A stretch of 64,000 nucleotides of DNA from Tubulanus polymorphus (lineage: Eukaryota > Animalia > Nemertea): contig NC_134035.1 in the NCBI RefSeq assembly GCF_964204645.1, positions 9,828,451-9,892,450 of the forward strand, read 5' to 3'. Below, in pieces: positions 29,301 through 32,037 of this stretch. Under the pieces are notes generated by a model. The model had not been told where the DNA came from, did no database searches, and saw nothing but the letters and a program-made list of their open reading frames with translations. The position numbers were made by a program, and so were the translations under genes. Position 1 is the stretch's first letter, and every line of letters begins with the position of its first letter.

Positions 29301-32037
29301 ATTCGAATTAGATTCAAAAAATATAAGTTATGTACGATGGAGAACTAAGAAGAAGTGACGACGAGTTGAACAGATTTTATTCAACGCATCACATCTTCGT
29401 TTTTTAGCTCTCCGTATCGAGTATCTACTCTGCCTGGGGTTTACTACAAACAAGATCATAATCGAGACTCGAGCATGCGAAAAGTCCAGGCTTTTATAAC
29501 GATTAACGAATGAATTAGGCGTTCATCGGAATCATCACGAAAAGAAGGACAGAATCTGACATTTCAATGATTTCAGGTGCCAAGACAGAGTACACCGGTT
29601 TACGAGTACAAATAATTGAAACACAAAGTGTGTGAAAGATTTTGATTTTCAACCAATGCAGGTAATACAGATTTGCAATGCTTTATACAGCATAACTACT
29701 CATCTGTGCATTCACAAGGAAAGATTAAGAATTGAAAAGGACGGACTGAATACAAGCAGACAGACAGACATACACACAGACAGAGATGTATATACAACAA
29801 CAATGAATGCTTACCCAGGTCAAGTTACCAACTGACGTGGCAAATCTTCGGTCGTTCCCCCCAGAATTCTGCATCGAGAGAACAAACAATAACCATGAAT
29901 ATCGAAACAGAAAAAAAAAACAAAACAAAACCATCGAAGAGTAATTAAATCAACGGCAAAATTATAACGAGTGAATTTACTGTAATTAAGAACACAGCAG
30001 AATTCTGGAAGGACTTGACACCGCAATGATTACATGCTTAAACCCTTAACAGATTTCTCTGTGTCGCTTTGAACTTAGATTTTGATTAAAGCGGATTAAA
30101 GCAGGCGCCGTATAAGAGTTTATTGGACAGAATTATACATCTTAGTAATGACCGTCTAATTCAATTGAAGAAATAATCCACAATTTATGAAGAAAAGCCG
30201 AAGAAAGTCACGTCCACGTTTTGACTCAAATACTAATCAGCATCCATTTTGAAATTGGCTTGTAGCATTTGAGTCATAATATCAATCTTCTATCAGTTTA
30301 ACTTCGTAATCGAGGGTTCTTTCATCAACTACTGAAAAACCACGTCTTGAAAATTGACACAATTTTTCGTTCCAGGAGCCAGTTGCTCAAAAGTTGGTTA
30401 AGAGTTAACCAGTAACAGCAGAAAGTTGACTTAGGGGTGACAATCAAAAGTACAATTGGATTACTACATGGTATTTATCCACCAGGTTATCTTCAACCAA
30501 CTTTTTATCAACTGACCCGGCTGGTATGTATGTTATGAAACAGCCGCTAAGCATTGTCAATCATTTGGATAAAATGTCTCTACTAGGTGTGACAATGATT
30601 ACTTACCCATGATAGATTGCCCACGTATGTAGCGTGTCGTCTGGTGGCCCATGGTTGCCCGGCAGCATTCGCAGCAGCCGTAGCCGTCTGCTTAGGGCCG
30701 GTCGGTTCCGACTGAAAATGAAAGACACAAAACATCTAGCATTGTATTTTACAATATCATTTATTTACTCAACACTATTTCTTATTGTATTTTAAGATTA
30801 TTTTGAATTTTTTGTTTCTAATTCATATTTCATAACGTATTAAGAGTTTGATAACCAAAGTTTTGGCCAACTTGTAAGTTTTCTTCTAACATCACCAGTC
30901 GTCCTAAATTATTTCTTAAATATTATTCATAAAATTTTATGAAATAATTTTAGTTATCTTATCTAAATGTCGTTGTCATCAAGTTTAGGGTTTCATTTCA
31001 TTGACAACTGTTAAGCTATGTATTAGTAACTATTGAAAGAACATTTGTGGGCCGGGAAAGAATCAATTACAGTTATCGTAGGGTAAGAAATATCAAAAGT
31101 AGCAATTAAAGGGTTTTCAGAGATCAGGGAAAGCAACAATCCCCGATTTAGCAGCAGGGTAAAATAATCCAGACCTCCCTTATTTTCAACATCACTATAA
31201 AGAACCATGTAATTCGTAGGTCGGGATAGTTTTTACGATTTAATAAGCTTTTGCTCGGGGCAACAGGTAAAAATACTAACATTATGATGAGCTGGAGGAC
31301 CATCAGCAGCGGGTCGGTCACCACCTCCGGTCGCTGGAGCAGTTATGACATCATCGTATAAATCACCTGCGTCGTTATTAAATTCATTTTCCTGAAGAAA
31401 TAGTTCAAATAATCACGTGAAACAGAGCGCGAATATAATGAATACAGCATTTGCTATGTCCATCGACATTGTATTTGAGTTAGATTTGGCAAATTTGTTC
31501 TCTGAAAGTGCGTTGGCATTTTGTGAGTGGTGGCGTTAAAAAGCATGGCATTATCACAGACTTCGACTGTATACTCAAAGCTATTTGATTTTCTTTTTTT
31601 TCATTGAAGCCTGATTGCAGCGCCCTCAAATGACAAAACAACGAACTAAAATGTGTTCTTTCAGTAAGTAAGTACCAGGATTCATTATCCCCTAGAAGGC
31701 TCTAGCAGCGGCATTGTTTAAAATAACCAACCCTCAACTCACGATATAATTGCAAGCAACAAACGCAAAAACAACAACTTGCATTTTTTGTTTTAACAAA
31801 GAACAATGAATGCCCAGCTCCCGTAGAAACCACCCGGCAAACTCGCACCCTTCTAAATCACAATATACTAAAGAGAACTGACCGTTATCAACCACTCAAA
31901 ATAACCCTCCAGATTCTATAATTTGTGCTCTATAAAGAGCTGCTAGAAAGATATCGATTCTAAACTGAATAAGACCTATTTACCTGATTAAAATCTTCGA
32001 TATTTTCATAAATATCGATGTCCACGCCATCCGCCAT
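23349..32037 (-). CDS. CPSF6: Cleavage factor Im large subunit (CFIm68, CPSF6/CPSF7 family)
   Basis: Exons 32037-31984, 31391-31281, 30711-30607 (or 29868-29815), 29117-29014, 28280-28126, 27721-27599, 27524-27361, 26984-26903, 26810-26784, 26558-26337, 26257-26139, 25682-25597/25615, 24827-24712, 24161-24014, 23634-23349. Motifs [45 protein letters not shown], a Pro/Gly-rich region, [43 protein letters not shown] and an RS tail. Confidence 0.96.
23772..23864. mobile_element. About 100-bp palindromic MITE family D
   Basis: cccagttccacagtt...aactgtggaaccggg. Similar copies at about 4005-4120, 38255-38358, 43425-43522, 48180-48300, 52195-52295 and 63117-63225. Confidence 0.8.
29815..29868 (-). 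CDS. CPSF6: Alternative duplicated CPSF6 exon 3b ([18 protein letters not shown])
   Basis: Acceptor ctctcgatgcag, donor TGG|GTAAGC, 54 nt, phase 0-0. Paralogous to exon 30607-30711, which ends [18 protein letters not shown]. Confidence 0.8.

Follow-up and report, generated by a model that had tools for sequence, protein, structure and literature searches.

Tandem copies of an RRM strand exon in the CPSF6 gene of the nemertean Tubulanus polymorphus

CFIm sets the length of 3' UTRs transcriptome-wide, and the first strand (beta1, with the RNP2 motif) of the RRM of its subunit CPSF6 (CFIm68) is almost invariant in animals. In the stretch of 64,000 nucleotides of Tubulanus polymorphus DNA analyzed here (the window), the CPSF6 gene offers two exons, 3a and 3b, that each end in a version of this strand, and in 3b the near-invariant Tyr is replaced by Ser. 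The question raised by this locus is how a gene with two first strands for a single RRM uses them, either as alternatives, together, or under some form of control.

The gene and its two strand exons

An intact CPSF6 gene occupies the minus strand of the window from 32037 to 23349. With both 3a and 3b included, the gene model has 16 coding exons, 1956 nt, and 651 amino acids (Table 1); all 15 introns are of the GT-AG type and there are no internal stops. The sequence features of a CPSF6/CFIm68 orthologue are present, namely an N-terminal RRM with GNLxWW and ENRxNGQSKG, a proline-rich middle region, and a C-terminal RS-like tail. The best protein matches of the gene are proteins named CPSF6, exon 4 matched human CPSF6 RRM structures at E 9e-12, and a profile of the exons plus the orthologue from the nemertean Lineus longissimus matched 3q2s_C at E 4.6e-46. 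Lineus CPSF6 is also the nearest named protein (64% over 502 columns); in a quick tree the pairing had a support of 86, under the starred level, and from these sequences the gene appears to group loosely with Lineus. The domain order is that of the human CPSF6/CFIm68 RRM (PDB 3Q2S, 3Q2T, 3P5T, and 3P6Y), with GNLxWW and the ENRANGQ loop kept, whereas here the beta1 exon is doubled and Ser stands for Tyr in the copy adjoining the rest of the RRM.

Table 1. Features of the CPSF6 gene of T. polymorphus (window positions)
Feature	Positions	Strand	Remarks
Exon 1, first coding exon, 18 residues	31984..32037	-	94% identity to Lineus CPSF6 over this stretch; outside the X4 contig
Exon 2, acidic N-terminal region	31281..31391	-	Donor used in X4 joint 31281>30711
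Exon 3a, linker and first beta1/RNP2 copy, near-invariant Tyr kept	30607..30711	-	105 nt, opens with SEPTG; spliced in X4
Upstream intronic arm of predicted 17-bp helix	29997..30013	-	Holds a look-alike AG at 30006-30005
Downstream arm of predicted helix	29856..29872	-	3b acceptor AG (29870-29869) and first 13 nt of 3b
Exon 3b, second beta1/RNP2 copy, Ser replaces Tyr	29815..29868	-	54 nt, 18 residues, frame-preserving; X4 joints 30607>29868 and 29815>29117
UG-rich intron start, candidate regulatory element	29665..29814	-	Five UGUA, first bases 29796, 29774, 29754, 29689, 29669
Exon 4, second Trp of WW loop, helix 1, strand 2, ENRANGQ loop	29014..29117	-	
Exon 5, RNP1 and remainder of RRM	28126..28280	-	
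Exons 6-15, proline-rich region, C-terminal helical domain, RS-like tail, up to stop codon	23349..27721	-	Gene model

Exons 3a and 3b are adjacent, homologous, and of the same phase, as is characteristic of a tandem exon duplication. Both have a CAG acceptor, a GTAAG donor, phase 0-0, and a terminal TGG, after which exon 4 opens with WTTDQDL at 29117. This architecture had been read from the sequence in the original prediction, and the borders proved exact in the spliced contig described below. A scoring profile for the strand segment was assembled from 133 distinct homologous 12-mers, against which 3a scored 32.8 bits and 3b 27.7 bits; the next best score among the 64,638 stop-free 12-mers of the window, in six frames, was 6.2 bits, thus excluding chance and confirming the proposed duplication of the RNP2 exon. 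The score of 3b is just under the 5th percentile of the homologues (28.7 bits). The final 12 codons of 3a and 3b have 9 of 12 residues in common, and all eight of the common residues that have more than one codon differ at silent sites. Saturated silent sites together with kept residues suggest that the duplication is old and that each copy has been under selection as protein.

The three residues that differ between the copies were compared with 286 homologues scored at the motif, out of 353 proteins of which 64 had no motif and three started too near it. Two of the differences are within normal variation, with His in 19 and Phe in 31 homologues at one position and Thr in 255 and Ser in nine at the other. 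The third is not: Tyr occurs in 281 of the 286 and Ser in none, thus bearing out the Tyr-to-Ser swap that had been noticed in 3b. Ile is found in place of the RNP2 Tyr in four of 80 related loci (L006, L012, L016, and L015), all single-copy CPSF6 genes, indicating that Tyr is no absolute requirement. Thr at RNP2 position 1 was considered as a sign of decay and dropped, as it is present in three of the 286 homologues, all of them from flatworms. In sequencing run X1, which represents a different haplotype, 3a has two differences, both synonymous, and none is listed in 3b; the substitution-free stretch around 3b in this run measures 365 nt (P 0.007, rising up to 0.16 without unscored parts), a weak sign. 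An identical 7-mer lies at +9 to +15 past the donors of 3a and 3b (30592-30598 and 29800-29806) despite the saturated silent sites; counting both strands, the window contains this 7-mer 18 times.

No second copy of the exon was found in the 353 homologous proteins, among which were the RefSeq isoforms of Lineus and isoform sets from molluscs, nor in 80 related metagenome loci, several of which are redundant and none clearly from a close relative. These loci comprised 20 with an intron and one upstream copy, 44 with one contiguous copy, 10 with no upstream match, and six with no anchor; an intron between the two Trp codons, with the beta1 exon upstream, is therefore widespread (20 of 80). By this comparison, the duplicated exon looks lineage-restricted. 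A literature search, with most subscription papers outside its reach, revealed no description of CPSF6 with its RNP2 exon duplicated, and the gene is absent from the main text of two human surveys that deal with duplicated or mutually exclusive exons (PMC8373072; PMC5740500). Related literature includes PMC9570436 and bioRxiv 2020.03.05.978023.

One could regard 3b as a decaying or accidental exon devoid of function, with its missing near-invariant Tyr, its score below the 5th percentile, and its occurrence in no other species examined. This is hardly credible, as nine of 12 residues were kept at saturated silent sites, no substitution is listed for 3b in X1, and the exon is spliced at both ends, as shown next.

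Splicing of exons 3a and 3b

The data covering the locus come from a single study with four runs, none of which is registered as RNA. Run X4 was taken as RNA from its five splice joints and the zero cover of unique intron sequence. Its contig, of 602 nt and depth 313, has no letter differences from the window and shows the joints 31281>30711, 30607>29868, 29815>29117, 29014>28280, and 28125>27720. The order exon 2>3a>3b>4, in frame, is thus found in the sole X4 contig over these exons, and the binned depth of X4 over 3a, 3b, and 4 equals that of this single both-included contig. Exon 1 and the start of exon 2 are outside the X4 cover, and for exons 6-15 the RNA support consists of the joint 5>6. 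Exon 3b has an inclusion junction at either end (30607>29868 and 29815>29117), so that the exon is truly spliced, as had been anticipated. Runs X1-X3 gave intronic contigs, and none of the joints appeared in the rows listed for them; exon 5, searched by itself at near lengths, gave no match. Editing of the Ser codon in RNA was rejected, since 3b in the X4 contig agrees with the window letter for letter, and a retrocopy as the origin of the spliced contig is unlikely, the rows listed for the DNA-like run X1 showing none of the joints.

The original prediction had proposed that 3a and 3b are mutually exclusive, and the junction 30607>29868 was expected to be absent. It is present, in frame, at depth 313. 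An in-frame junction joining two exons counts as a rejection of mutual exclusion in the available text of Hatje et al. (PMC5740500), and by these criteria mutual exclusion is rejected for the X4 sample. The same source also holds that mis-splicing can cause the wrong rejection of real cases, and 3a and 3b are indeed homologous same-phase tandem exons with a common 3' end; true mutually exclusive exons, with X4 as an atypical or mis-spliced sample, would still be very improbable. The joining junction is in the sole contig, neither of the bridging junctions was seen, the exons differ two-fold in length, and they lie 738 nt apart. The frames of 3a and 3b are moreover compatible, so that decay would not remove a joined form.

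The reading preferred here, with a probability of about 0.55, is that 3b acts as a regulated cassette, the beta1 strand of the RRM being exchanged when the exon is included, together with an unseen 3a-only form. Exon 3b is an ancient tandem duplicate of the part of 3a that encodes beta1/RNP2, and it follows 3a in the spliced message. When included, according to this model, it would place the Ser strand directly before exon 4 as the first strand of the RRM and push the Tyr strand of 3a into the linker; when skipped, 3a would supply the Tyr strand and a canonical RRM would result. The 3a>4 form may be made in some tissues or states. Neither of the skipping junctions, 30607>29117 (3a>4) and 31281>29868 (2>3b), was seen in the contigs of X4, a single RNA-like sample in which minor forms get lost during contig assembly, so that these data speak to presence rather than absence. 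A 3a>4 form would also explain why 3a has kept its Tyr. The weight of the case is that of one species, one RNA assembly, and a presumed second isoform.

Two other arrangements bear on the same junctions. Both exons might be constitutive, so that the protein always has two beta1-like segments, with 3b completing the RRM and the copy in 3a retained for a separate function within the chain, for example as an extra strand, as a lid on the sheet, or in a second folding register. The both-included message is the sole form in X4, and most tandem duplicated exons become constitutive, as reported in the available text of PMC8373072. A new role would be needed, however, for the full RNP2 motif and Trp of 3a, kept despite silent saturation, and two copies are found in none of the 353 homologues. 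This arrangement, to which the linker and the acceptor of 3b are also relevant (see below), is the main rival reading, which we consider less probable than a regulated cassette. Alternatively, 3a and 3b could be included independently of each other as two cassettes, which would yield 3a-only, 3b-only, and both-included proteins. Every combination of the two exons preserves the frame; the junction 31281>29868, which a 3b-only message requires, was not seen in X4, making independent cassettes improbable.

The RRM with and without exon 3b

In a structural model of the Lineus orthologue (mean pLDDT 75, with block means of 70-97 across the RRM core), the segment forms strand beta1 (69-74) and the two Trp residues lie in the loop before a helix at 82-91, in agreement with the earlier assignment of the strand as beta1/RNP2 followed by a WW loop. 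Against a profile built from 218 homologous RRM segments, the both-included protein scored 141.1 bits with 3b as beta1, and 3a gave a separate match of 8.2 bits. The 3a-only protein scored 143.8 bits, the 3b-only protein 141.8 bits, and the protein with neither exon 117.9 bits. In the both-included protein, 3b is thus predicted, at the level of sequence alignment, to occupy the beta1 register.

The forms also differ in the linker that precedes the RRM. It measures 76 residues in the joined form, a length reached or exceeded in two of 123 homologues, 58 residues in the 3a-only form (24 of 123), and 41 residues in the 3b-only form, within the natural range of 37-89. The linker of the joined form is therefore long, albeit in range, which is compatible with constitutive use of both exons; the length and the 141.8 bits of the 3b-only form are likewise compatible with independent cassettes. 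A linker shortened by 17 residues had been predicted for the isoform with 3b. The figure fits the 2>3b form, which X4 does not contain, and the observed joined form is 18 residues longer than the 3a-only one.

Besides the beta2/beta3 loop, binding of CFIm25 or RNA also involves the WW loop and residues of RNP2, and a C-terminal helix covers the RRM sheet. Binding of CFIm25 needs the beta2/beta3 loop of human CPSF6, residues 116-122, according to the parts available of bioRxiv 177980, PMC6511849, and PMC11472059, and the first of these, as far as available, describes the CPSF6 RRM as a CFIm25-binding surface and not as an RNA-binding one. The counterpart of this loop is ENRANGQ, which is encoded by exon 4 and unchanged in every isoform. 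The argument that the two exons would alter docking on CFIm25 is thus weaker than first claimed: the strand does belong to the RRM, as stated, and the loop required for docking is constant. As the loop is kept in both forms, inclusion of 3b would more likely alter the exposed face of the beta-sheet than remove the CFIm25 partner. A Tyr-less beta1 copy in a natural message would constitute a ready test of the function of this face.

The comparison with mutually exclusive exons is instructive. The present exons resemble them in being homologous, same-phase tandem exons with protein-level constraint and in the possible swap of one element; they differ in that the observed RNA contains both copies joined together, and that the swap would occur by adding a second copy that displaces the first. 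The parts are of known kinds, and what would be new is a duplicated strand exon that swaps a structural element by addition. Such a route to a domain swap would be rejected by screens for mutually exclusive exons, since the copies are joined in RNA.

Possible control of exon 3b

An inverted repeat around the 3b acceptor is predicted to form a helix of 17 bp, with two G-U pairs and a loop of 124 nt. Its energy of -29.4 kcal/mol is the strongest for the 15 acceptors of the gene (next -18.6), was attained in none of 2000 intron shuffles, and ranks fifth of 8400 17-mers along the gene; compared with the 571 acceptor-like YAG sites that the window contains (mean -10.7, sd 3.4), it ranks first. Pair probabilities are 0.6-1.0 in contexts of 500 and 800 nt and 0.73-0.78 at the AG. 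A stable helix beyond chance is thus predicted over this splice signal; the folding of the wider 281-nt region is not unusual (z -1.41). Ten of the 17 pairs derive from a palindrome common to both arms, and the helix could therefore have started from a short direct duplication. No outstanding competing second selector was found in the 25 longest pairs out of 65 inverted ones listed, and there was no Rfam match at E 0.1 over 29000-31400. The AG-free zone before 3b measures 109 nt, a length not unique in the gene (127, 105, and 91 elsewhere). The look-alike acceptor in the upstream arm is followed by bases that match those at the real 3b acceptor; its use would produce a frame-shifting exon of 190 nt with a stop, and X4 contains none.

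Structures that mask splice sites regulate inclusion, with MAPT exon 10, F8 intron 15, and MALT1 exon 7 as cases (PMC11802352, available text), and a docking/selector model of RNA structure has been described for duplicated exons (PMC6071210, available text). As far as these sources can be compared, the present locus is similar in having a stable predicted helix that overlaps the splice site of a duplicated exon, and differs in that one helix lies on one acceptor. Inclusion of 3b despite the helix indicates that it was no simple block in the X4 sample. Under the regulated-cassette model, the helix hiding the 3b acceptor would instead set the level of inclusion, and the model would then explain both the conservation of the two copies and the helix itself. 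Constitutive use of the two exons leaves the strongest acceptor helix of the window, on 3b, unexplained. For independent cassettes, the 3a acceptor has no comparable helix, its best one reaching -11.1 kcal/mol.

UGUA is the motif of CFIm25. Five UGUA occur in the first 150 nt past the 3b donor, where 0.9 were expected (Poisson P 0.002, for a region chosen post hoc), and the other 14 donors of the gene have 0-2 in the corresponding stretch. Intron 3b-4 as a whole has 11 UGUA versus 4.2 expected (P 0.004), or 15.8 per kb; the density is also high in intron 4-5 (10.9 per kb) and intron 7-8 (13.3 per kb). Windows of 150 nt with at least five UGUA number 112 of 12,770, and part of the UGUA-rich stretch past the 3b donor is a UG microsatellite. 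These motifs may be sites of action for CFIm or a different protein that binds UG. CFIm promotes MAT2A splicing via intronic UGUA, and a functional UGUA precedes the acceptor of the MAT2A detained intron, as described in the available text of PMC8139829. As far as that text goes, the likeness lies in intronic UGUA near a possibly regulated splice event, and the difference is that here the candidate target would be the pre-mRNA of a CFIm subunit itself, with a cassette exon and hypothetical binding.

It is a speculative and rather unlikely extension of the regulated cassette that CFIm, bound to the UGUA cluster and working against the acceptor helix, decides whether a Tyr-less beta1 displaces the ancestral strand, so that the protein would rewrite its own RRM by insertion within a feedback loop. 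If true, such feedback would give rise to two CFIm complexes with different behaviour at poly(A) sites, and the two strands of the both-included protein might exchange, constituting a natural two-register switch.

A further UGUA lies at 29125-29128, 8-11 nt upstream of exon 4, a placement like that of the functional UGUA at the MAT2A detained intron (PMC8139829); acceptor 26984 of the gene has a UGUA in the equivalent position, so the placement may be due to chance. About 150 nt of intron 3b-4 are locally duplicated (29534-29675 and 29148-29296, spacing 383), with 80% identity over an 81-nt core, two UGUA per copy, and an X1 depth near single-copy. High-copy short repeats, with X1 depths in the thousands, occur in other parts of the CPSF6 introns (28284-28611 and 30252-30579). 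The remainder of the window contains open frames that resemble an RS-rich U1-70K-like gene (9100-10500, plus strand), a fragment of a retrotransposon reverse transcriptase (13800-14969, minus strand), and genes for a MOB kinase activator (35242-35544, minus strand), SNAPC1 (38485-39805, minus strand), MFAP1 (41534-45222, plus strand), and RFWD3 (47166-52869, minus strand).
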